Shown here one piece after another: positions 102-11,304 of a stretch of DNA of 32,000 bases. The DNA is from Candidatus Methanoperedens sp. GTDB lineage: Archaea; Halobacteriota; Methanosarcinia; Methanosarcinales; Methanoperedenaceae. Both the position numbers and the translations under genes were made by a program. The stretch is from the NCBI GenBank assembly GCA_027460535.1, contig JAPZAR010000014.1, forward strand, positions 1 to 32,000, read 5' to 3'. The notes under the pieces were generated by a model that worked only from the letters and a program-made list of their open reading frames with translations, was not told the DNA's origin and did not search any database. Position 1 is the stretch's first letter. Every line of letters starts with the position of its first letter.

Positions 102-980
102 TTAGATTTTGTTGTCAGAGGATAGGGGTAAAGTTGGGTCAATTGCTTTATTGACAGCATGATATTGATGATAGGCTGCCAATTTTTTATGAATGTCCTG
201 CCGTTCCTGTTCAAAAACTATGAAATGCCTTATCAGGTCAAGCAGTATTTTTTTATTAAACATCCCCTGGAACAGCACTTCCAGCTGAGGCATGGCTGAA
301 GGTTCGATTTCTTTTCCCTCGATCGTTTTCCAGGGCATGAACCTCTCTTTGTTGGAGGTTATTGTTCCTGCTCTTGCTTCTATTCCATCGCTGATGACCA
401 ATATCTCATTGTAAGAGAATAGCGAAGGAATCTGGGATTTGTAGGTTTCGAGTTGATTAAAAGCAGTCCAGATCGTTGCATTTTCATCAGCAGGATTTTT
501 TAATTCGATGACAACCAGAGGAAGACCGTTTATGAAAAGGATGATATCAGGTCGTCTGTTATTGTTGTTTTCAAGGATTGTGAACTGATTTACTGCAAGG
601 AACTCATTATTTTGTGGGTTTTTGAAATCGAAGAGCCAGACCTTATCATTCGTGAGCTTTCCGTCTTTTTTTCTATATTCGATATCAACGCCCTCAACCA
701 GCTTCTTATGGAAGTTCTGGTTGTTAATGATGAGCTGTGGGCTCTCTGTCCTTAATACTTTTTTTATTGCTTCTTCTCGTGCTTCTTCGGGTATGTTCGG
801 ATTAATCCTATCAACTGCATCTCTTAGCCTTTCAACCAGAACAGTATCAGAATAGCTTCGCCTTTCTGCGTTTATACCATCAGGCGCAATATCAAGACCA
901 TTTAGTATTTCATAGCCTAGTTCTGAGAGAATTTCAAGAACGCCTTCTTCAACCTCTGATTCTGTCATTCCAAAGGTCAT
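102..980 (-). CDS. hsdR: Type I restriction enzyme R subunit (HsdR), N-terminal nuclease-domain fragment; truncated before the helicase motifs
   Basis: 292-aa ORF. 'RRPDIILFINGLPLVVIELKNP' fits the HsdR N-terminal PD-(D/E)xK motif. 'AAYHQYHAVNKAI' is the segment that normally precedes the Walker A helicase motif, but a stop follows at 102-104 and no GSGKS/DEAH motifs are present. The ATG at 978-980 forms an ATGA overlap with the upstream HEPN stop; an alternative ATG lies at 966-968. Confidence 0.7.
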   Translation of the reverse strand: MTFGMTESEVEEGVLEILSELGYEILNGLDIAPDGINAERRSYSDTVLVERLRDAVDRINPNIPEEAREEAIKKVLRTESPQLIINNQNFHKKLVEGVDIEYRKKDGKLTNDKVWLFDFKNPQNNEFLAVNQFTILENNNNRRPDIILFINGLPLVVIELKNPADENATIWTAFNQLETYKSQIPSLFSYNEILVISDGIEARAGTITSNKERFMPWKTIEGKEIEPSAMPQLEVLFQGMFNKKILLDLIRHFIVFEQERQDIHKKLAAYHQYHAVNKAIDPTLPLSSDNKI

Positions 981-1414
981 ACGGTTGCTCCATATTCTTT
1001 TTCAGAAATGAAAATTCTTATTTTCTCAAGAAATTCTTTTGCAGAATCCAGGGCAGCCTTTGCCTCTTTCTCGTCAATAGCGAAATCAAGCCCATAGATT
1101 GCGTCGTGCCTGAATCTTCGGTATGAATCAAGAATATTTGCTAAGGTCTCCAATTGCGAATATTTTTCCTTTAGATAAACAGGGATACATTCATGACTCC
1201 GCTCTTTTATACCATCCCTGGAAAGGATGGCTCTTGCTGCATGAAACATGGCTGTATAACTCAAGATTGCCACGACCCTATAACGATGTATGGACATATT
1301 CTCAGCCGCATCCTCGATATTGCTCCTTGAAAGCTCAAGGGAACGAAGGGCATTTTCCATATCAGGTGTTGTTCTTTTCAGCAGACCCTTCTGGAAACAT
1401 TCTGCCATTTTCAT
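977..1414 (-). CDS. HEPN domain protein (putative toxin partner of the adjacent nucleotidyltransferase)
   Basis: 145 aa, all-helical. 'AILSYTAMFHAARAILSRDGIKERSHE' resembles classical HEPN-domain proteins paired with NTases. ATGA overlaps occur at both ends (1411-1414 with the NTase stop, 977-980 with the hsdR start). Confidence 0.7.
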   Translation of the reverse strand: MKMAECFQKGLLKRTTPDMENALRSLELSRSNIEDAAENMSIHRYRVVAILSYTAMFHAARAILSRDGIKERSHECIPVYLKEKYSQLETLANILDSYRRFRHDAIYGLDFAIDEKEAKAALDSAKEFLEKIRIFISEKEYGATV

Positions 1415-1983
1415 TTTAAACCGCTCCCATGGAGCAGGATGTGATTATCAACAATCCTTTTATAAAATGCATCACCCTTTTTTGCCATTTCTCTCCATTC
1501 TGATAATTTTAATACTGATAAGCTTACCTCTTTTTCAAGTTCATCCTCCAACCTTTTTGCTGCTTTTATGAAAATTTCTTTACTGGCGCTTGTAACTACC
1601 AGAAAATCTATGTCACTTTTTTCATCAAAATTACCTTCTGCATAGCTTCCAAAAAGGGCAAGAGAGATGATATTTGAATCAATTTCAAGGAATTTCTCTT
1701 TTGGTTTTGATGAAAGCACAAAAGCGATTCCATATGCCTTTTTCAGCGGCGCAACCATGCTATTATCAGAGTCCAGCCTGTAAATATGAGCCAGTCCTTT
1801 TTCTTCCTTCAAAAGAAGTCCGTCTTCCTCGAAGGATTTTACAGCACTGCTCACGCTTGCGGGACTGACGTTGAGCACCCTCGCAAGCTGTTTTATGTGG
1901 AAAGAGGTGTTTGGATTAGCCAGGAAATGAGCCAGGATTTTCCATTTTACATATGTTCTGAATAGTTCAATCAAATGAACCAC
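1411..1983 (-). CDS. Winged-helix-fused minimal nucleotidyltransferase (MntA-like antitoxin candidate)
   Basis: 190 aa. N-terminal wHTH-like segment 'FHIKQLARVLNVSPASVSSAVKSFEEDGLL'. C-terminal NTase signature 'LFGSYAEGNFDEKSDIDFLVV' (GS...DxD). The codon at 1981-1983 is GTG, so the start is uncertain. Confidence 0.7.
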   Translation of the reverse strand: MVHLIELFRTYVKWKILAHFLANPNTSFHIKQLARVLNVSPASVSSAVKSFEEDGLLLKEEKGLAHIYRLDSDNSMVAPLKKAYGIAFVLSSKPKEKFLEIDSNIISLALFGSYAEGNFDEKSDIDFLVVTSASKEIFIKAAKRLEDELEKEVSLSVLKLSEWREMAKKGDAFYKRIVDNHILLHGSGLK

Positions 1984-2040
1984 CGTTCATTATATTAAAC
2001 GCAAGTTCAGTATAAAAATCTATCTGCGATCATCGCAGGT

Positions 2041-2100
2041 TCAATTACCCGCCCGAATCTCGCCCGACATCAGCTTCGGGGCATCGCGGATTTGAGCAGA
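2041..2100 (-). pseudogene. Remnant of an hsdS 3' end
   Basis: The minus strand reads '...SAQIRDAPKLMSGEIRAGN*'. The intact hsdS end reads '...AALRDALLPKLMSGEIRV...'. Nucleotides 2055-2080 are identical to 2875-2900 and 2081-2090 to 2907-2916, with a 6-nt gap between the blocks. Confidence 0.65.
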
Positions 2101-2123
2101 ATTTTTCCTGTGAGGGATACAGC

Positions 2124-2519
2124 TCATAGCTCTAATAGTGTATCTTTAATCCATTTTCGCAACTGCTGGACCAGTTCCAACGCTTTCTGGCGATTGAATG
2201 GTTCTTCTTCTTCCATGGGAATGTAATCGTATCGGAATTCAACTGCAAAAGGAGAGAGGGTGCGTATTTCCATAAGCGATTCTGGAAATTTTATACCATT
2301 ATCTCTAATCAGGTCTATCAGTTCCCTCAGATCATGCGTCCTGCGGTAGGGGATATTCTTCGCCATAAGAAGGGCTTTTAGCAGCTTTTCAGCGGCTTGC
2401 TGGGCATGAAAACCAATGATCTCATCTCTGACTTTTTCGTTTGAGATGATTTCCTCAAGGAGAGTCTCATCATCTTTTGATTTCGCAAGGAGTAGCTCTG
2501 CTCTCTCAAGCGGCTCCAT
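2124..2519 (-). CDS. HEPN domain protein (partner of the upstream minimal nucleotidyltransferase)
   Basis: 'GFHAQQAAEKLLKALLMAKNIPYRRTHDLRELI' is a classical HEPN helix pair. I chose the internal ATG at 2517-2519 ('MEPLERAELL...'), which overlaps the NTase end by 14 nt, over the longer ORF start at 2612. Confidence 0.7.
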   Translation of the reverse strand: MEPLERAELLLAKSKDDETLLEEIISNEKVRDEIIGFHAQQAAEKLLKALLMAKNIPYRRTHDLRELIDLIRDNGIKFPESLMEIRTLSPFAVEFRYDYIPMEEEEPFNRQKALELVQQLRKWIKDTLLEL

Positions 2520-2823
2520 AAACCACCTTCCCTTCGACAGCTGCTTCGTAAATGACCGTTCCAGGCGCATCCTTCCATTCATTATATGATTTTTCACTGA
2601 CGACAAGCACATCTACAGGTATTCGAAGGGGACTTAACACATCCCTGAGGCGCACGGTCTCCATCCTTCGGGCTTTTATTTCTTTTTCAACAACAAGAAA
2701 ATCAAGGTCGCTGCTCTCTTTAATATCACCACGAGCATAAGAACCGAAAAGGATTATCTTGACGGGATTTGCAGCCTTTTTGAGTAGTTCGACAGCTTCC
2801 TGAATAGTTCTCTTGGATATCAT
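2506..2823 (-). CDS. Minimal nucleotidyltransferase (MNT/MntA-like)
   Basis: 105 aa. 'ILFGSYARGDIKESSDLDFLVV' is the GSxxRG...DxD polymerase-beta-type NTase signature. It starts 10 nt after the hsdS stop. Confidence 0.8.
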   Translation of the reverse strand: MISKRTIQEAVELLKKAANPVKIILFGSYARGDIKESSDLDFLVVEKEIKARRMETVRLRDVLSPLRIPVDVLVVSEKSYNEWKDAPGTVIYEAAVEGKVVYGAA

Positions 2824-2833
2824 ATTCTATCTT

Positions 2834-4129
2834 CTATTTATTTTCATTATTTAAATTACTATTTGTACTGACGCGAATCTCGCCCGACATCAGCTTCGGG
2901 AGGAGGGCATCGCGGAGCGCGGCGAGGGTGCGGGATTGTTCATCATTAGCTTGGATTTTGTTATAGATTTCCCGCATATGTTCATCGAAGACTTGCAATA
3001 TTTTAGGGGATGGAACTATCATTTTATTCATATAAACCACATTTCGATTCAATCCGGGTACAGCCGAATCTGCCCCTAATGATTGCAAATCCTGTAAGCG
3101 AAGAATATAAAAAAGATAGTATATGCTTCGAATCGCTTTGGGAACTACATAAAAAGTCGTGTCTATCGGGAAAAATGCTTTATGTGACCATGTGATTATC
3201 CCGGGATTTCCCTTTCGCCCAACCACGATCCCTGGTCCCTCAACCAATTTTTCATTATGCCAACCGATCTGACCATTTGAACCATAAACAGGTACATTTC
3301 CTTTAAGGCGATTTTCATCTTTAAGTGGTTTACCATAAGCGAGTTCTAATATCTCACCTACAGTCATAACCTTCCACCCCTTGGGCACCTCCCCAAGCTC
3401 CGTCTCCAGCATCTCCCCGCCGCTCGACCTGTAGGGTTTGCCCTCCTCATCCGGGAACTCAAAATCAACGAACCAGCGCCTGAAAAGAGCCTGCCCAATT
3501 TTTTCAAGCGTGATGTTCATATGACGGTTGAGGGCGATTTTATCGTCGAGAGAGACGAGGATTGAAGCGATGTGTTCTTGTTCTTCTAAATCTGGTAAAG
3601 GAATTGGAATTTTTTTCAATGATGTTAGCGGTTGCGCTATAGCCGGTACTCCTGTTGTGGATGTGTTCTGAAGTAACAGGTATTGTCCTTGAGATGACCT
3701 CAAAAAATAAAAAACAAAATCCGGATTAGCAATTGATTCATCGCAGCTTAGCTTCATCTGGCTTTGAGAAACAACATATCGATTATACTTACTATCAACA
3801 GGTATTATACCAACTTGTCCCAGAGTTCCTCTATGGGTGATTACAATATCTTTTGGGAAGGCATTGCTTGATTTTAAGCTATCTGCTTTTGCTTCGCTAA
3901 TAAAAACAAATTCCGCTTCATTGAATCTGTCAGAATTTAGGTTCGCTCCTCTAATAACTGGTACACCCGAAGGTAAAAAATTATTCTTTGTGATATTAGA
4001 CCCAAAAGGTCCCATAGCGATAGAATAAGGTTTTTTTCCTTTGATATCATCTATTGTTTTGACATTCCAATCTTCAGGAATCTTACCTATCTCAGTTTGT
4101 TTGAATTTGGTTTCCCTCATTTCCCTCAT
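2834..4129 (-). CDS. hsdS: Type I restriction-modification specificity subunit HsdS
   Basis: 431 aa with two variable halves. These are separated by the conserved central region 'LPDLEEQEHIASILVSLDDKIALNRHMNITLEKIGQALFRRWFVDFEFP'. The ORF ends with the conserved 'LRDALLPKLMSGEIRV'. Two in-frame ATGs (4129, 4120) arise from a 9-nt tandem duplication. Confidence 0.9.
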   Translation of the reverse strand: MREMRETKFKQTEIGKIPEDWNVKTIDDIKGKKPYSIAMGPFGSNITKNNFLPSGVPVIRGANLNSDRFNEAEFVFISEAKADSLKSSNAFPKDIVITHRGTLGQVGIIPVDSKYNRYVVSQSQMKLSCDESIANPDFVFYFLRSSQGQYLLLQNTSTTGVPAIAQPLTSLKKIPIPLPDLEEQEHIASILVSLDDKIALNRHMNITLEKIGQALFRRWFVDFEFPDEEGKPYRSSGGEMLETELGEVPKGWKVMTVGEILELAYGKPLKDENRLKGNVPVYGSNGQIGWHNEKLVEGPGIVVGRKGNPGIITWSHKAFFPIDTTFYVVPKAIRSIYYLFYILRLQDLQSLGADSAVPGLNRNVVYMNKMIVPSPKILQVFDEHMREIYNKIQANDEQSRTLAALRDALLPKLMSGEIRVSTNSNLNNENK

Positions 4130-5123
4130 TTCCGACTACTTCAAAATCTGTATAATCTATCCCTTTTGATTCGTCCAAATAAGTTTTTGCTTTAACTAAA
4201 ATTTCCCTATTGACACCCTCAACATCAATGTTACATTTAACTAATGAAATTATAGTAATTAGTTCTGCACCTGTTTCTTCCTCTTTGAAATAATCTACTG
4301 AATCTATATAATCAATAACACGTGCACTTTCAATACTGCAGTCTTTTTCATCAAATATAATTGAATTTAATTGAGATAATTCCTTAGCAATATGATCTTT
4401 AAAGTAATCATTATTTACAAAATCCAAAAATTTATTCTTTTGGATTATCGAATCATAGTCTTTATTTATTTCTTCTTTTACATAATCTACCGATGGAGTG
4501 AGGACAAAATATTTTTTGACTATAGATTCAAATTCAGAAATGCATTCATCAAAACCAGAGTCGTTAGATATCATAATTACTTTATTATAATTATCTAAGG
4601 CATTATAGTTTAATATTGACTCCCATATTAGAACATCTTTAAAACCGCTATCCGATGAATTTCCTTTTTGTTTGAAAGGAGATTTTTTATCGATTGCTCT
4701 TTTAATAATATTTTTGAAAATCTCGCTCAATTGGTCATCAGGAAATTCTATTATATTTATGTTGTTTTTTAAAATAAATTCATTTAACAATTGTTTTAAA
4801 TTCTCTGAGCAATTAAAATCGTTGCCTGGTAACGTCATTCCCACAAAAGAAGTATTTGGCAACATTGATAATCTTTCTTTAATTGAATGAAAGTCTTTAA
4901 GGTCGGTTTCATATTGTTCAATTTTTTGTTTCAATAGTTCTTCAACAACAATTCTTGGAATTGCCATTTTTACCAAATCTGCTAGCTTTACCTCTTTGAT
5001 AAAATTATTAACTTGCTCAAATTCTTCACTAAACTCAAAAGAACCATATGAAGGTTCACCTTTTACTACTGATCTTAATTTATTCGTATCAAAAACAATT
5101 AAAGTCCTTTTTTCAGAACCCAT
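4092..5123 (-). CDS. PIN-like domain protein with an uncharacterised C-terminal half, embedded in the type I R-M operon
   Basis: 343 aa. The putative PIN acidic residues occur in the expected order and context: 'LIVFDTNKL', '[11 protein letters not shown]', '[11 protein letters not shown]', '[12 protein letters not shown]'. It overlaps the hsdM stop by 11 nt and the hsdS start by 29-38 nt. It is visibly AT-rich relative to its neighbours. Confidence 0.55.
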
Positions 5124-6663
5124 ACCCTAACTCCGCAAGATTCTTCCTTATCTTTACCTCAAGCTCTCTTGACCTCTCAAACTGCCCCGCCAGTTCCACC
5201 GTCAGCCTCCGCATCTTCTCCTCAAAAGGCTCGCCATCCTCTTCAATTTCTTCAGCGCCCACATACCGCCCCGGAGTCAGGATATGTCCATGCTTCCTGA
5301 TTATATCCAGCTTAACTGCCATGCAGAATCCTGGCACATCCTCATATTTCCCGCCCTCCCCGCGCCAGGCATGATAGGTGGAAGCTATCTTCCCTACCTC
5401 TTCATCAGTAAGCTCCCTGTGCCTCCTGTCCACCATGACGCCCATCTTTCTGGCATCTATGAAAAGAACCTCTCCGCGCCTGTCCCTGAACTTGTGGTTT
5501 TTCTTATCCCGCGCAACGAACCACAGGCAGGCGGGTATCATTGTATTGTAGAACAACTGCGAAGGCAACGCCACCATGCAGTCAACAAGGTCAGCCTCGA
5601 TAATGTTCTTTCTTATCTCACCTTCACCCGAAGTATTGGAAGACATCGAGCCATTTGCCAGCACAAATCCTGCTATCCCTGTAGGAGATAAATGATGAAT
5701 GAAATGCTGCACCCATGCAAAGTTTGCATTGCCTGTGGGCGGAACTCCGAATTTCCATCTAATATCTCCCTTAAGAAGCTCGCCTTTCCAGTCGCTGTCA
5801 TTAAAAGGCGGATTGGCGATCACAAAATCCGCTTTCAGTTCCTTATGGGCGTCATTCAGGAAACTCCCTTCATTATTCCACTGGACATTAGCATCAATAC
5901 CACGAATAGCAAGGTTCATCTTGCACAGGCGCCAGGTGGTCTGATTGGATTCCTGCCCATAAACAGCGATATCTCCTATTCTTCCTTCGTGAGCCTTAAC
6001 GAATTTCTCACTCTGTACGAACATGCCGCCTGACCCGCAGCAAGGGTCATAGATACGTCCTTTGTAAGGTTCAAGCATCTCAACCAGGGTTTTGACTATT
6101 GACCTTGGTGTATAGAATTGTCCACCTTTCTTACCTTCTGCATCAGCGAACTGCCCTAAAAAGTATTCATATACTCGCCCCAGAATGTCTTTGGATCTGC
6201 TTTCATAATCCCCGAGACCTATCGTGCCTATAAGGTCTATCAGCTCCCCCAGCCTTTGCTTATCAAGAGCAGGCCGCGCATAATTCATGGAAGAAAGAAC
6301 ACCTTTCAGGGAAGGATTGTCTCTTTCGACAGCATCCATAGCTTCGTCTATAATTTTACCGATGGCTGGCTGCTTTGCATTTTTTTTAAGATGCTCCCAT
6401 CTCGCTTCTTTTGGAACCCAGAAAACATTTTCTGCCCGGTATTCATCCGGGTCTTCCGGGTCTGCGCCCAAATTAGATTCCTTGATTAAAAATTGGTTCC
6501 TCTCTTCGAAAGCATCGGAGATATATTTGAGGAATATCAATCCCAGAACGACATGCTTGTATTCGGCAGCATCCATATTATTTCTTAGTTTATCAGCTGC
6601 CTGCCAAAGTTTTTGTTCAAAACCCAGATTTGCCCCATTACCGTTAGGTTTGTTTGTTGCCAT
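5113..6663 (-). CDS. hsdM: Type I restriction-modification N6-adenine DNA methyltransferase HsdM
   Basis: 516 aa. HsdM N-terminal domain ('[32 protein letters not shown]'), SAM motif I '[12 protein letters not shown]' and catalytic motif IV 'FVIANPPFN'. Confidence 0.95.
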
Positions 6664-8373: not shown

Positions 8374-11304
8374 CTACCACCGCAACGTCTTTTGCCACGC
8401 CTCCTTCAGCTCATCTATCCCCGCGCTCAGCACCACTTTCTCCCCGTCCATCACCGTGAAATTCTGCTGCGCTGTAACCACGCCCACATCCGCAAGCACG
8501 TTTCTTTTCATTATCTCTTCGAACCTCGCAACCTTATCCTGCGCCAGAGTCACCACGAACCTGCTCTGGGATTCTGAAAACAATATCGTATCCGCACGCT
8601 TGATATTCTCTACAGGTACCTTCGTCAATTCGATTGTCACACCAAGGCCGCCGGAGAAAGCACTCTCAGCCAGCGCCACACCCAGACCGCCGTCAGAGCA
8701 GTCATGGCATGAAGCTACCAGCCCTTCGCTGATGGCCTTTTCAAGTGCAGCGTAAAGCCGCTTTGCCAAAGTCGCATCCACTTTCGGCACATCGTTCCCG
8801 ATAAAACCAAGGGAGGCGTAATACTCTGAGGCTCCGAGTTCATCTTTTGTCATTCCGAGAACATAGACCCTGTCATCGGGTCTTTTAACGTCCATAGTAA
8901 CTGCCTTTCTGACATCCTCAATCTTGCCTATCGTCGAAAAAAGCACCGTGGGCGGGATGGAGATTTTCCTGTTTCCAATGATATAATCGTTCTTCATGCT
9001 GTCCTTTCCCGAGATGCAGGGAACCCCGTAAGCTTTTGTGTAATCGTATAAAGCCATATTCGCCCTCACAAGCTGGGCGAGTTTGAATTCACCATCCGGG
9101 TTCTTCACCGACTTAACAGGGTCGCACCAGCAGAAATTATCAAGACCGGCCACATGGTCAAGAGAGCCTCCAACAGCAATGTGGTTCCTGATAGCCTCAT
9201 CGATGGCACATGCGGTCATGTGGTAGGTATCTATATCGCCGTAGCGCGGGCATATGCCGTTCGCGACCACAACGCCTTCCATGCTGTCAAGCAGCGGGCG
9301 GACCACCGCGGCATCGCTCGGGCCGTCGCCCTGGAGGGGTTTTATCACCGAGCCGCCCTGCACCTCGTGGTCGTACTGCCGGATGACATATTCTTTCGAG
9401 CAGATATTGAGACGCGAGAGGAGGTTTTTCAATGCCGCTGCCAGGTCAACAATTCCAAGCACTGGCTCCTCGAATTTCCCGGGCACCCAGCGTGCATTCA
9501 GTTTCATAATGGGAAGTCCTTTGTGGAGAAAATCCATACCCAGATAAGCCACTGTGTTATCACCGTACTTTGCATGGAATTTCCCGCTGGCTGTGAATGT
9601 CCCTATGACAGTAGCTTCTACGTCCCTTGTTCTGGCAAATTGCAGGAACTCATCTATTTTATCAGGCGCCACTGCAAGGGTCATTCTTTCCTGGGATTCG
9701 GAAAGCAGTATTTCCCATGGGTCAAGCCCCGCGTATTTGAGAGGGCATTTCTCAAGCTCGATGAGGCATCCGCCGGAGAGCTGCGCCATCTCTCCCACAG
9801 AAGAGGACAATCCGCCTGCCCCGTTGTCAGTAATGGCGTCGTACAGTCCTTTATCCCTTGCCTCAAGCAGGAAATCGAGCATCTTCTTCTGGGTTATCGG
9901 GTCTCCTATCTGAACGGCGGTAACTGGGGAATTCTCATCGAGTTCAAGTGAGGAAAAAGTTGCTCCGTGTATGCCATCTTTCCCTATGCGTCCTCCTGTC
10001 ATCACTATGAGGTCGCCTTTCTGGATCTCTTTTATATGTGACGGCTTACCATTTATTGCAGAGGGCATTATCCCTCCTGTTCCGCAGTACACCAGGGGCT
10101 TTCCCAGGTACCTGTCATCAAAAACGATGCAGCCGTTCACCGTGGGGATACCGCTCTTATTTCCTCCGTGTTCCACGCCACGGCGCACGCCTTCGAATAT
10201 CCTTTTGGGATGAAAGAGGCGCGGTGGAAGTTCCATGTCATAGAACGGTGAGGCGAAGCAAAGAACATCAGTATTAAAGATCAACCGCGCACCCATACCC
10301 GTGCCCAGAGGGTCACGGTTCACTCCCACGATCCCCGTGATCGCACCGCCGTAAGGGTCAAGGGCAGAGGGTGTGTTATGCGTTTCAACCTTCATAACAA
10401 GGTTATGCTCATCGTTGAATTTTATAACACCTGCATTGTCGGTAAAAACCGATACAAGCCACGGCTTATTTATCTCCCTTGTTGAACGTTTAATAAAAGT
10501 ATCAAAAAGCGAATTTATGGTCTTTGTGATTTTTCCATCTGTATAAGTTATCTGGCTGTTGAATATCTTGTGTTTGCAGTGTTCCGACCATGTCTGCGCA
10601 AGCACTTCTATTTCCACATCGGTCGGCATGGAAAGGCCAATCTCTTCTCTTTCAGTTATGATTTCTTTATTATTGAAATATTTTTGTATCGTTCTCATCT
10701 CGGAAATGTTGAGGGCAAGAAGCCGCTGCCTGCTAATTTCCTTCAATTCATTTTCGCTTACATGCAGATTTATTGTCGAGACAGATGGTATGTGTTTTTC
10801 TTTGACTACAGGAAGAGGAAGCCGTACGCCCTTTTTTTTATCCCATTCTCTATTGCCGACAATTTCCCATTTCTCTATCAGGCCATTGGCGAGAAGACCG
10901 CCAGCGATCCTCTCCGCATTTTCTTTTGAAAGGTCCCCTTTCAGGAGATATTGCTTTGAAAAATAAACTCCATGCAGCGTTGTTCTCAATACATCCTCAG
11001 ATGCTTTTTTTGCAGTCGTTCCGACATTGTCTGTCACACCCGGCCTGAACCCGACTTCTATCAGCCAGGAAAAATCCCGGGCCAGGGGTTTTTCTGAAAA
11101 AACCTGTATCACGGGGTCTGCAAATAGTTTATCACCGAGGAGAGAAAGTTCTTCCTTTGTGAGTTCTGGATCGAACGTATAAACATCAATGGTCCTGACC
11201 GATTCCACATTAATATGAATATCATCAATAATTCTTTTTTTGATACTTTCCCCAAGAGCATCTCTCACACCTTTTTTAAAAGCGACTTCGATTCTGCTGG
11301 CCAT
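8374..11304 (-). CDS. purL: Phosphoribosylformylglycinamidine (FGAM) synthase PurL with a PurS-like N-terminal extension
   Basis: 976 aa. 'LAQTWSEHCKHKIF' is the PurL signature, but it sits near residue 240 instead of near the N-terminus. AIR-synthase-like repeats follow ('GGAITGIVGVNRDP', 'DNGAGGLSSSVGEMA', 'SGKDSMKND', 'HDCSDGGLGVALAE'). No glutaminase domain is present. Confidence 0.9.
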   Translation of the reverse strand: MASRIEVAFKKGVRDALGESIKKRIIDDIHINVESVRTIDVYTFDPELTKEELSLLGDKLFADPVIQVFSEKPLARDFSWLIEVGFRPGVTDNVGTTAKKASEDVLRTTLHGVYFSKQYLLKGDLSKENAERIAGGLLANGLIEKWEIVGNREWDKKKGVRLPLPVVKEKHIPSVSTINLHVSENELKEISRQRLLALNISEMRTIQKYFNNKEIITEREEIGLSMPTDVEIEVLAQTWSEHCKHKIFNSQITYTDGKITKTINSLFDTFIKRSTREINKPWLVSVFTDNAGVIKFNDEHNLVMKVETHNTPSALDPYGGAITGIVGVNRDPLGTGMGARLIFNTDVLCFASPFYDMELPPRLFHPKRIFEGVRRGVEHGGNKSGIPTVNGCIVFDDRYLGKPLVYCGTGGIMPSAINGKPSHIKEIQKGDLIVMTGGRIGKDGIHGATFSSLELDENSPVTAVQIGDPITQKKMLDFLLEARDKGLYDAITDNGAGGLSSSVGEMAQLSGGCLIELEKCPLKYAGLDPWEILLSESQERMTLAVAPDKIDEFLQFARTRDVEATVIGTFTASGKFHAKYGDNTVAYLGMDFLHKGLPIMKLNARWVPGKFEEPVLGIVDLAAALKNLLSRLNICSKEYVIRQYDHEVQGGSVIKPLQGDGPSDAAVVRPLLDSMEGVVVANGICPRYGDIDTYHMTACAIDEAIRNHIAVGGSLDHVAGLDNFCWCDPVKSVKNPDGEFKLAQLVRANMALYDYTKAYGVPCISGKDSMKNDYIIGNRKISIPPTVLFSTIGKIEDVRKAVTMDVKRPDDRVYVLGMTKDELGASEYYASLGFIGNDVPKVDATLAKRLYAALEKAISEGLVASCHDCSDGGLGVALAESAFSGGLGVTIELTKVPVENIKRADTILFSESQSRFVVTLAQDKVARFEEIMKRNVLADVGVVTAQQNFTVMDGEKVVLSAGIDELKEAWQKTLRW

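Follow-up and report, generated by a model that had tools for sequence, protein, structure and literature searches.

To our knowledge, PrrC is the only well-understood accessory gene nearly confined to type I restriction-modification (R-M) operons. The reasoning that a gene lodged inside a defence operon is likely to act in defence has been formalised as 'guilt-by-embedding', in a study that confirmed seven of nine tested embedded candidates as defence genes and reported PrrC almost exclusively within type I R-M systems (Payne et al. 2024, bioRxiv 10.1101/2024.01.29.577857). PrrC is freed by anti-restriction proteins, and this guard mechanism has been summarised (PMC12707154). Here, we describe a gene that invites comparison with PrrC in a 32,000-nucleotide (nt) stretch of Candidatus Methanoperedens sp. 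(GenBank contig JAPZAR010000014.1, positions 1 to 32,000; hereafter the window), a 343-amino-acid (aa) open reading frame (ORF) of the Pfam PIN_12 family that lies between hsdM and hsdS. Across archaea and bacteria, and down to ~25-30% identity, the family is embedded near-exclusively and position-specifically in type I R-M operons. We tentatively read the protein, with somewhat less than even confidence, as a PIN nuclease, probably an RNase, encoded by an optional cassette that is co-translated with the methyltransferase core and acts as a restriction-linked defence effector, its C-terminal domain serving as sensor or regulator.

An earlier note on this DNA knew of no characterisation of the family or of the arrangement. 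The family is not new, being Pfam PIN_12 (formerly DUF4935), recognised as PIN-like since 2017 (Matelska et al. 2017, PMC5499597); of a PIN_12 family embedded between hsdM and hsdS we likewise found no description. The 2017 classification lists the function of DUF4935 as unknown, treats its C-terminal region as unassignable and places PF16289 in the VapC group of PINs (PMC5499597). Beyond it, the literature on PIN_12/DUF4935 or on a PIN gene between hsdM and hsdS consisted of general embedding papers alone; leads into the H. parasuis and S. lugdunensis literature proved irrelevant, and the accessible part of the supplements of Payne et al. (bioRxiv 10.1101/2024.01.29.577857) names neither PIN_12 nor DUF4935. 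The notion of an embedded effector, on which the earlier note had built, is itself not new: defence genes inside type I R-M systems have been published (bioRxiv 10.1101/2024.01.29.577857), and hundreds of such candidates are known. What is new here is an uncatalogued PIN family in type I R-M systems, its unusual fidelity to one slot, its novel domain and its occurrence in both archaea and bacteria. The gene, its junctions and its parts are as follows.

4092..5123, minus strand: PIN_12-family gene, 343 aa, ATG start (ORF; Pfam PF16289, E=6.7e-17; 26 homolog clusters; dN/dS)
5113..5123, minus strand: 11-nt overlap of the PIN start with the 3' end of hsdM, ATGGGTTCTGA (sequence)
4092..4129, minus strand: overlap between the last codons of PIN and the first of hsdS, 29 or 38 nt (sequence)
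4551..5099, minus strand: PIN domain, residues 9-191, with putative catalytic D12, E62, D163 (plus D158) and D188 (Pfam envelope, alignment, AlphaFold2 model)
4128..4514, minus strand: family-specific acidic C-terminal alpha+beta domain, residues ~204-332 (AlphaFold2 model, profile search, charge analysis)
4095..4127, minus strand: disordered C-terminal tail (predicted local distance difference test score (pLDDT) <50 for residues 333-343), a region that also encodes the hsdS start

On re-reading the sequence, the ORF (343 aa, 5123..4092 on the minus strand, between hsdM and hsdS) and its overlaps of 11 nt with hsdM and 29-38 nt with hsdS were exactly as the earlier note had given them. The product is deposited at NCBI as MCZ7356572.1, a 'PIN domain-containing protein', and the identical protein is present in NCBI, ENA and Logan. 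The PIN ATG (5123-5121) lies 11 nt within hsdM, the TGA of which is at 5115-5113, and a GGAG is placed 9-12 nt upstream of this ATG. The PIN TGA is at 4094-4092, and just ahead of it a tandem 9-nt duplication (ATGAGGGAA twice, 4112-4129 on the minus strand) creates two in-frame hsdS ATGs, at 4129 and 4120, the choice of which sets the overlap with PIN at 38 or 29 nt, respectively. Both the NCBI annotation and an independent gene caller start hsdS at 4120. Read in the PIN frame, the duplication gives a repeated GNEGNEG tail, and in two relatives, P0002 and L015, the PIN protein ends five codons sooner than that of the window.

The PIN gene is real and selected. Shuffling these 1032 nt 2000 times gave no stop-free run longer than 163 codons, whereas the actual ORF has 343, and the ratio of nonsynonymous to synonymous substitution rates (dN/dS) between the window and a Methanoperedens relative is 0.28 for the whole gene. 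By part, the ratio is 0.25 for the PIN domain and 0.31 for the C-terminal domain (0.16 for hsdR), so that both halves of the protein are under purifying selection. A chance ORF or a pseudogene is ruled out by the shuffles, the conservation over the family and the dN/dS.

By its profile match, the N-terminal half is a bona fide PIN_12 domain. It scores 62.9 bits against PF16289, with a cutoff of 32, over model positions 1-172 of 172; there is also a weaker Pfam match to PIN_8, and PF16289 is the precomputed assignment in 24 of the 26 homolog clusters. Over these clusters, which reach down to 24% identity, residues E62, Q66, P149, F150, D158, G160, F161, K162, D163, W167, L171, D188 and E197 are invariant and D12-T13-N14 is near-invariant (D12 in at least 90%), which leaves the acidic tetrad D12, E62, D163 and D188 conserved in the family. 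The alignment thereby identifies the four acidic motifs that the earlier note had picked out with positions that are invariant or nearly so, and its proposal of a PIN-like protein is borne out by the full-length profile match together with the tetrad. In the AlphaFold2 (AF2) model of the protein (pLDDT 86, predicted TM-score (pTM) 0.78), the conserved acidic residues lie where beta1 and beta4 end and where helices begin, as in PIN domains. Judged from secondary structure without superposition, D12, E62, D163 and D188 would be equivalent to the canonical metal-site positions. A Foldseek search of the PDB returned VapC2 (3zvk_A, probability 0.99, TM-score 0.49 normalised to the target) and AF1683 (1w8i), none at E<=0.001, the weak whole-chain scores being due to the two-domain query. 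A BFVD entry for a 'PIN like domain' protein of 366 aa from a virome contig, A0A8S5M7Q9 (Siphoviridae sp. ctPAi1), also matched the full two-domain model, at a Foldseek E of 3e-14; it may represent a copy carried by a phage or else host DNA binned as viral.

The characterised members of the VapC group of PINs are RNases. By analogy with them, the window protein would be an active, metal-dependent VapC-like nuclease, and its substrate is probably RNA. A reading in which the PIN domain instead acts on DNA in the manner of a FEN/5'-nuclease, adding to or replacing HsdR cleavage after the core has recognised an unmodified site, seems to us very improbable. The PIN-like superfamily does include DNA nucleases, and three PIN-HsdM-HsdS operons without an obvious restriction subunit were remarked on in the 2017 classification (PMC5499597). 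The position of the gene between two DNA-recognition core subunits and the Firmicute loci of the family, in which hsdR is not adjacent, also fit such an extra subunit. On the other hand, the homology is to the VapC group with its RNases, most PIN-positive loci keep a full-length HsdR with a nuclease domain of its own, and the pI of the whole protein, 4.6, is poor for non-specific DNA binding.

In the models, the C-terminal domain (~130 aa) opens with a helical segment and continues into an antiparallel sheet of five strands, with a pLDDT of 86 and 81 in the two AF2 models that cover it. When it was modelled separately, Foldseek found no significant match in the PDB (best E=0.05, TM-score <0.35); as the NTF2-like, BPI/SPLUNC and PARC6 folds all came at E>=0.05 and TM-score <0.35, we rejected them and assigned no fold. 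The family profile gave spurious coiled-coil-like matches alone against PDB sequences (E>0.07). A profile of the domain itself found 59 representative clusters in 1.84e9 proteins, and essentially all full-length matches are proteins of ~320-345 aa with the domain at ~200-330, which indicates that the domain is confined to this architecture of PIN plus acidic tail. The earlier remark that the C-terminal part matched nothing recognised thus holds for PDB folds, for PDB sequences and for the profile search, in which the clusters recovered were those of its own family.

Acidity is the other mark of this domain. In the window it has a pI of 4.3 and a net charge of -15, and across the family the pI is 4.1-4.6, the net charge -9 to -28 and the share of Asp plus Glu 21-26%. 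The domain of P0015 is less acidic (pI 5.0, net -6), and the net charge is -4 in P0026 and in P0020, a member outside R-M. In the reading that we favour, the acidic domain would be a sensor or regulatory module. A stronger version makes the family a second 'R-M guardian', analogous to PrrC but distinct in mechanism, and has the acidic domain dock the PIN on the DNA-binding surface of HsdM2-HsdS, or mask the PIN active site in cis, and so keep it latent until anti-restriction proteins of phages that mimic DNA (Ocr/ArdA type) or loss of the core release an RNase that would abort infection, in archaea as in bacteria; taken with all its parts, this version is improbable.

The full-length family is rare: clustering at 90% identity leaves 26 clusters among 5.8 billion proteins. 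Contexts were available for seven lineages from the protein databases, six of which have the gene between hsdM and hsdS (one of the six being a Firmicute-type locus with invertible hsdS genes) and the seventh of which, P0020, has it elsewhere. Scanning GTDB with a single genome for each species gave 18 loci, 13 of which have the order hsdM-PIN-hsdS. In a further locus, L015, the contig ends inside PIN and hsdS follows, which raises the loci with hsdS downstream to 14 of 18; the gene stands just after hsdR in one, and the remaining three, the weakest and partial matches, have no R-M genes nearby. The archaeal hosts are Methanoperedens, Methanohalophilus, Methanosarcinales and Woesearchaeota, and the bacterial hosts are Omnitrophota, Syntrophaceae, Bdellovibrionales, Patescibacteria, Ruminococcus, Oscillospiraceae, Alistipes and Solibacillus. 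Plasmid pBT62A of B. thuringiensis BT62 carries the same arrangement of methyltransferase, PIN domain protein (WP_141552299.1) and S subunit. The association of the homologs with type I R-M, which the earlier note had proposed as a test, is found in six of seven lineages, in 14 of 18 genome loci with one more beside hsdR, and on this plasmid. A tblastn search of 50,697 GenBank phage records gave no match, and IMG/VR yielded five weak partial PIN matches and nothing else. One homolog locus, L005, is labelled as a viral operational taxonomic unit (vOTU).

Two of these loci have conspicuous surroundings. In Moraniibacteriota (L007, JBSHXF010000001.1, 4739-15937), the order is hsdM, a Schlafen/AlbA_2-HATPase_c_4 gene, PIN, hsdS, a gene for a 225-aa unknown protein, SduA_C (Shedu-like) and hsdR, followed by an Mrr-like nuclease. 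In locus L003, hsdM-PIN-hsdS-hsdR is preceded, at 223-4034, by a 7-deazaguanine-type cluster (QueF, TGT-like, QueC), SLATT and ThsB-TIR and is followed by a Lar-like restriction-alleviation gene, the region being a dense island of defence and modification genes.

The layout of the junctions is conserved. Between hsdM and PIN the spacing lies within -14 to +17 nt in 17 of 19 loci, an extra gene intervening in the other two, and between PIN and hsdS it lies within -41 to +29 nt in all 20 loci; 12 loci besides the window have PIN/hsdM overlaps of -4 to -14 nt. Divergence in PIN goes together with divergence in HsdM (Mantel r=0.82, p=2e-4), and the median pairwise identity is 27% for PIN versus 62% for HsdM. 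PIN evolves much faster than HsdM, as is typical of conflict genes. No VapB-type small antitoxin gene was found beside PIN in the window operon or in the homolog loci inspected, and since hsdM and hsdS both overlap the PIN ORF, the window leaves no room for one.

Functional coupling to the R-M core is supported by the near-exclusive slot embedding, the adjacency to hsdS, the overlapping junctions, the co-divergence and the absence of an antitoxin. The PIN cassette would be translationally coupled to hsdM upstream and to hsdS downstream, and its product would serve as a second line of defence, a toxic nuclease active once restriction has failed or been inhibited, as is the case for PrrC. The strict translational coupling and the lack of an antitoxin gene would also suit a role within the operon, in which the PIN RNase cleaves hsd mRNA and so sets the timing of restriction relative to modification when the operon enters a new host, or is a masked addiction toxin for post-segregational killing; the very AT-rich coding, which could limit expression of a toxic product, points the same way. 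We regard such a role as quite improbable, given that most operons of this R-M family work without PIN, that the hsd transcript has no evident cleavage target, and that the fast-evolving, acidic, family-specific C-terminal domain resembles a conflict interface rather than a housekeeping regulator.

We collected the 80 metagenomic HsdMs closest to that of the window (66-81% identity), 62 of which were evaluable, with at least 900 nt of downstream sequence. In most of the 62, hsdS abuts hsdM, and about 16 carry other cargo in the slot: TIR, a YhcG-type PD-(D/E)xK nuclease (PDC-S02), DUF4062 plus HATPase_c_4, RhuM, ORF6N, a four-helix-bundle protein and unknowns. The statement in the earlier note that type I operons normally have nothing between hsdM and hsdS therefore fails for this R-M family, where the junction is often occupied. 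The defence-type character of this cargo (TIR, PDC-S02, DUF4062-ATPase, RhuM), together with two MNT-HEPN pairs in the window operon, suggests a defence role for the PIN gene as well.

Several points weigh against an R-M-linked effector and have to be set beside this support. None of the 62 evaluable loci carries the PIN gene, which rules it out as a core subunit of the R-M family, and Methanoperedens genomes with an HsdM at least 90% identical (e.g. BLZ2) have unrelated cargo in the same slot. Since the slot is a general hotspot of insertion and recombination, position alone may reflect cargo movement rather than function. Neither P0020 nor the most distant PIN_12 relatives have R-M genes as neighbours, and DUF4935 genes at large are usually mono-cistronic (PMC5499597). 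None of the 26 family members matches a PADLOC-DB v2 model at E<=0.1; genes of this operon and slot, used as positive controls, do match (PDC-M05A/B, PDC-S09 and PDC-S02), and scans of the window PIN protein and all 26 members with NCBIfam, PADLOC and PHROGs gave no matches. In the window itself, hsdR is broken or unassembled, so the local system may be without restriction activity. The tie to HsdM and HsdS is a genetic one, and a physical or regulatory link is plausible by analogy with PrrC.

The chief alternative is that the gene travels in the slot on its own account, as a self-sufficient toxin or defence nuclease encoded by one gene, in which the C-terminal domain would provide sensing or inhibition in cis, gaining co-transfer and a promoter but acting independently of HsdM and HsdS; the slot would then be the place where related type I operons swap cargo by recombination in conserved flanks. 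We think this unlikely, though it keeps a real chance. It is favoured by the many unrelated cargo genes in the slot and their exchange even at >=90% HsdM identity, by the PIN-positive HsdMs that are interspersed among PIN-negative ones at similar identity, by P0020 outside R-M, and by the precedent of embedded systems such as BrxU, which act independently of the system that surrounds them (bioRxiv 10.1101/2024.01.29.577857; PMC12707154). Generic hitchhikers, however, are also found elsewhere and in various positions, whereas the PIN family is, in archaea and bacteria alike, near-confined to one slot of one widespread R-M family and co-diverges with HsdM, and PIN adjoins hsdS in 20 of 20 loci even when a gene stands between hsdM and PIN. 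The gene is, in sum, one optional type of cargo in an exchangeable slot, yet a remarkably slot-faithful one.

Turnover of the slot inside the genus Methanoperedens is very fast, as loci L123-L127 (BLZ2 and relatives) show. In one version, hsdS is preceded by a 98-aa ORF, a fragment of DUF1016_N and ORFs of 483, 294 and 166 aa; in another, a HATPase_c_4/HTH protein, KilA-N and an MNT gene come ahead of hsdR.

Base composition bears on the same alternative. The G+C content is 0.272 for PIN, 0.471 for hsdM and 0.411 for hsdS, and the counts quoted in the earlier note for two 60-nt lines, 16 G+C in 4141-4200 and 35 in 5161-5220, are exact. The suggestion made there, that the low G+C reflects separate acquisition, was not supported by comparison with the homologs. 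PIN has a lower G+C than hsdM in 20 of 20 loci (mean difference 0.136), and the G+C of third codon positions (GC3) of PIN stays at 0.16-0.27 in 15 of 19 loci while that of hsdM ranges over 0.24-0.89, with no significant correlation (rho 0.17). For these reasons, AT-richness is a trait of the PIN family and, to a lesser extent, of hsdS. Furthermore, the window and L015 are equally diverged in PIN (88.5% nucleotide identity) and hsdR (88.4%), which argues against a recent swap in the window lineage and hence against independent movement of the gene. A recent arrival here on the ground of AT-richness is thus ruled out by the family-wide low G+C and by the equal divergence. If a low-GC middle block were imported again and again, as the reading of independent cargo would have it, GC3 would likewise be low whatever the GC3 of hsdM; the cause may be such repeated replacement of the middle block out of a low-GC pool or selection for AT-rich coding, for example for low expression of a toxic product. 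The middle block forms a separate compositional unit in two type I operons, with the following GC3 values.

L028 (Alistipes, CASDSD010000007.1, 3082-10410): hsdM 0.89, PIN 0.24, hsdS 0.39, hsdR 0.89
L018 (Methanohalophilus sp. RSK): hsdM 0.72, PIN 0.18, hsdS 0.30, hsdR 0.48

The operon of the window runs on the minus strand in the order hsdM, PIN, hsdS, MNT (minimal nucleotidyltransferase), HEPN, a winged helix-turn-helix (wHTH)-MNT fusion, HEPN and a 5' fragment of hsdR. The genes other than PIN are the following.

5113..6663, minus strand: hsdM, 516 aa, MCZ7356573.1 (PF02384, E=9e-110; PF12161, E=6e-29; PADLOC MTase_I, E=9e-225)
2834..4120, minus strand: hsdS, 428 aa, MCZ7356571.1 (PF01420, two target recognition domains; PADLOC Specificity_I, E=6e-110)
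2506..2823, minus strand: MNT of the first MNT-HEPN pair (PADLOC PDC-S09, E=3e-12; PF01909)
2124..2519, minus strand: HEPN of the first pair, 131 aa (PF05168, E=6e-18)
1411..1974, minus strand: wHTH-MNT fusion of the second pair, PDC-M05A-like (PF01909, MarR_2/HTH_24; PADLOC PDC-M05A, E=4e-26)
977..1414, minus strand: HEPN of the second pair, PDC-M05B-like (PF05168, E=1e-12; PADLOC PDC-M05B, E=1e-4)
102..980, minus strand: 5' fragment of hsdR, 292 codons (PF04313, E=9e-56)

The two MNT-HEPN pairs between hsdS and hsdR (977-2823) look toxin-antitoxin-like, and the hsdS-hsdR gap of the Methanoperedens relative L015 holds other cargo, with ORFs of 171, 320, 118 and 571 aa. The similarity of hsdR to intact hsdR genes (blastn and translation against L015 and L001) stops near position 133, short of the helicase motifs. 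An independent ENA contig with the identical locus, k141_520811 (50.4 kb), ends at about window position 1, which shows that the break in hsdR coincides with an assembly end; a repeat, an insertion sequence (IS) or a mobile element may lie behind it, or else a genuine truncation of hsdR by mutation. Elsewhere in the window, a phosphoribosylformylglycinamidine (FGAM) synthase gene at 8374-11304 on the minus strand (976 aa; NCBI PurL, MCZ7356576.1) has PurS-like domains fused N-terminal to PurL.

If the PIN family is a defence effector, an uncatalogued family joins the few accessory genes nearly confined to type I R-M, with a nuclease fold unlike that of PrrC and a domain seen nowhere else, and a part of Pfam PIN_12/DUF4935, still listed as unknown, gains a function. 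As the family occurs in archaea and bacteria, it could show whether the 'guarding' of restriction systems is a general strategy. The GC3 pattern, with a middle block at ~0.2 between hsdM and hsdR genes of up to 0.89, offers a clean case for the study of how cargo slots are refilled, and the gene for WP_141552299.1 on plasmid pBT62A of B. thuringiensis BT62 provides a cultured entry point.

Among known systems, PrrC of the E. coli prr locus (EcoprrI, type IC) is the closest in genetic habit: like the gene for the putative PIN nuclease, it is optional, lies inside an hsd operon, is nearly confined there and has no separate antitoxin, and in its exclusivity to type I R-M operons the PIN family is PrrC-like. 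The proteins themselves differ. PrrC combines an ABC-ATPase with an anticodon-nuclease domain and is encoded between hsdS and hsdR, whereas the window protein combines a PIN domain with a novel acidic domain and is encoded between hsdM and hsdS. The two are not similar in sequence or by profile: PADLOC, Pfam and NCBIfam gave the window protein no match outside the PIN families, and PADLOC none to PrrC. PrrC has been demonstrated to be held latent on the R-M complex and released by anti-restriction proteins, and by analogy the same may hold for the window PIN.

The guilt-by-embedding candidates catalogued as HEC and PDC in PADLOC-DB v2 fall into the same category, being nested in type I R-M, BREX, DISARM and Hma systems and in some cases carrying PIN, NYN or HEPN RNase domains; HEC-03 pairs a PIN protein with a separate ABC ATPase, while the window has a single gene with a fused novel domain. 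PIN_12/DUF4935 as described in 2017 (PMC5499597) shares the ~350-aa layout of the window protein, with a PIN-like N-terminus, in which strand 2 is followed by a long helical insert, and an alpha/beta C-terminus without known homolog. Unlike PIN_12/DUF4935 at large, the subfamily of the window is almost always in type I R-M operons, and its C-terminal domain is limited to ~59 representative clusters.

Cosus (Brc24), with a reported 'PIN12' domain, protects E. coli against T7, and mutation of predicted PIN residues weakens this defence (bioRxiv 10.1101/2024.07.02.601719). It is a single-gene system, likened here to the window protein by description only, and the dependence of its defence on the predicted PIN residues T12, D14 and D96 indicates that stand-alone PIN12-type proteins can be anti-phage effectors. 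Cosus differs in residing in integron cassettes rather than R-M operons, and the spacing to D96 implies a shorter PIN domain without long inserts. Finally, the VapC toxins of VapBC have the PIN fold and the acidic active site that are predicted for the window protein, and VapC2 (3zvk) and AF1683 (1w8i) are its best structural matches; VapC is a protein of ~130-150 aa with a VapB antitoxin, while the window protein has 343 aa and an extra domain and is encoded inside an hsd operon with no VapB-type gene.

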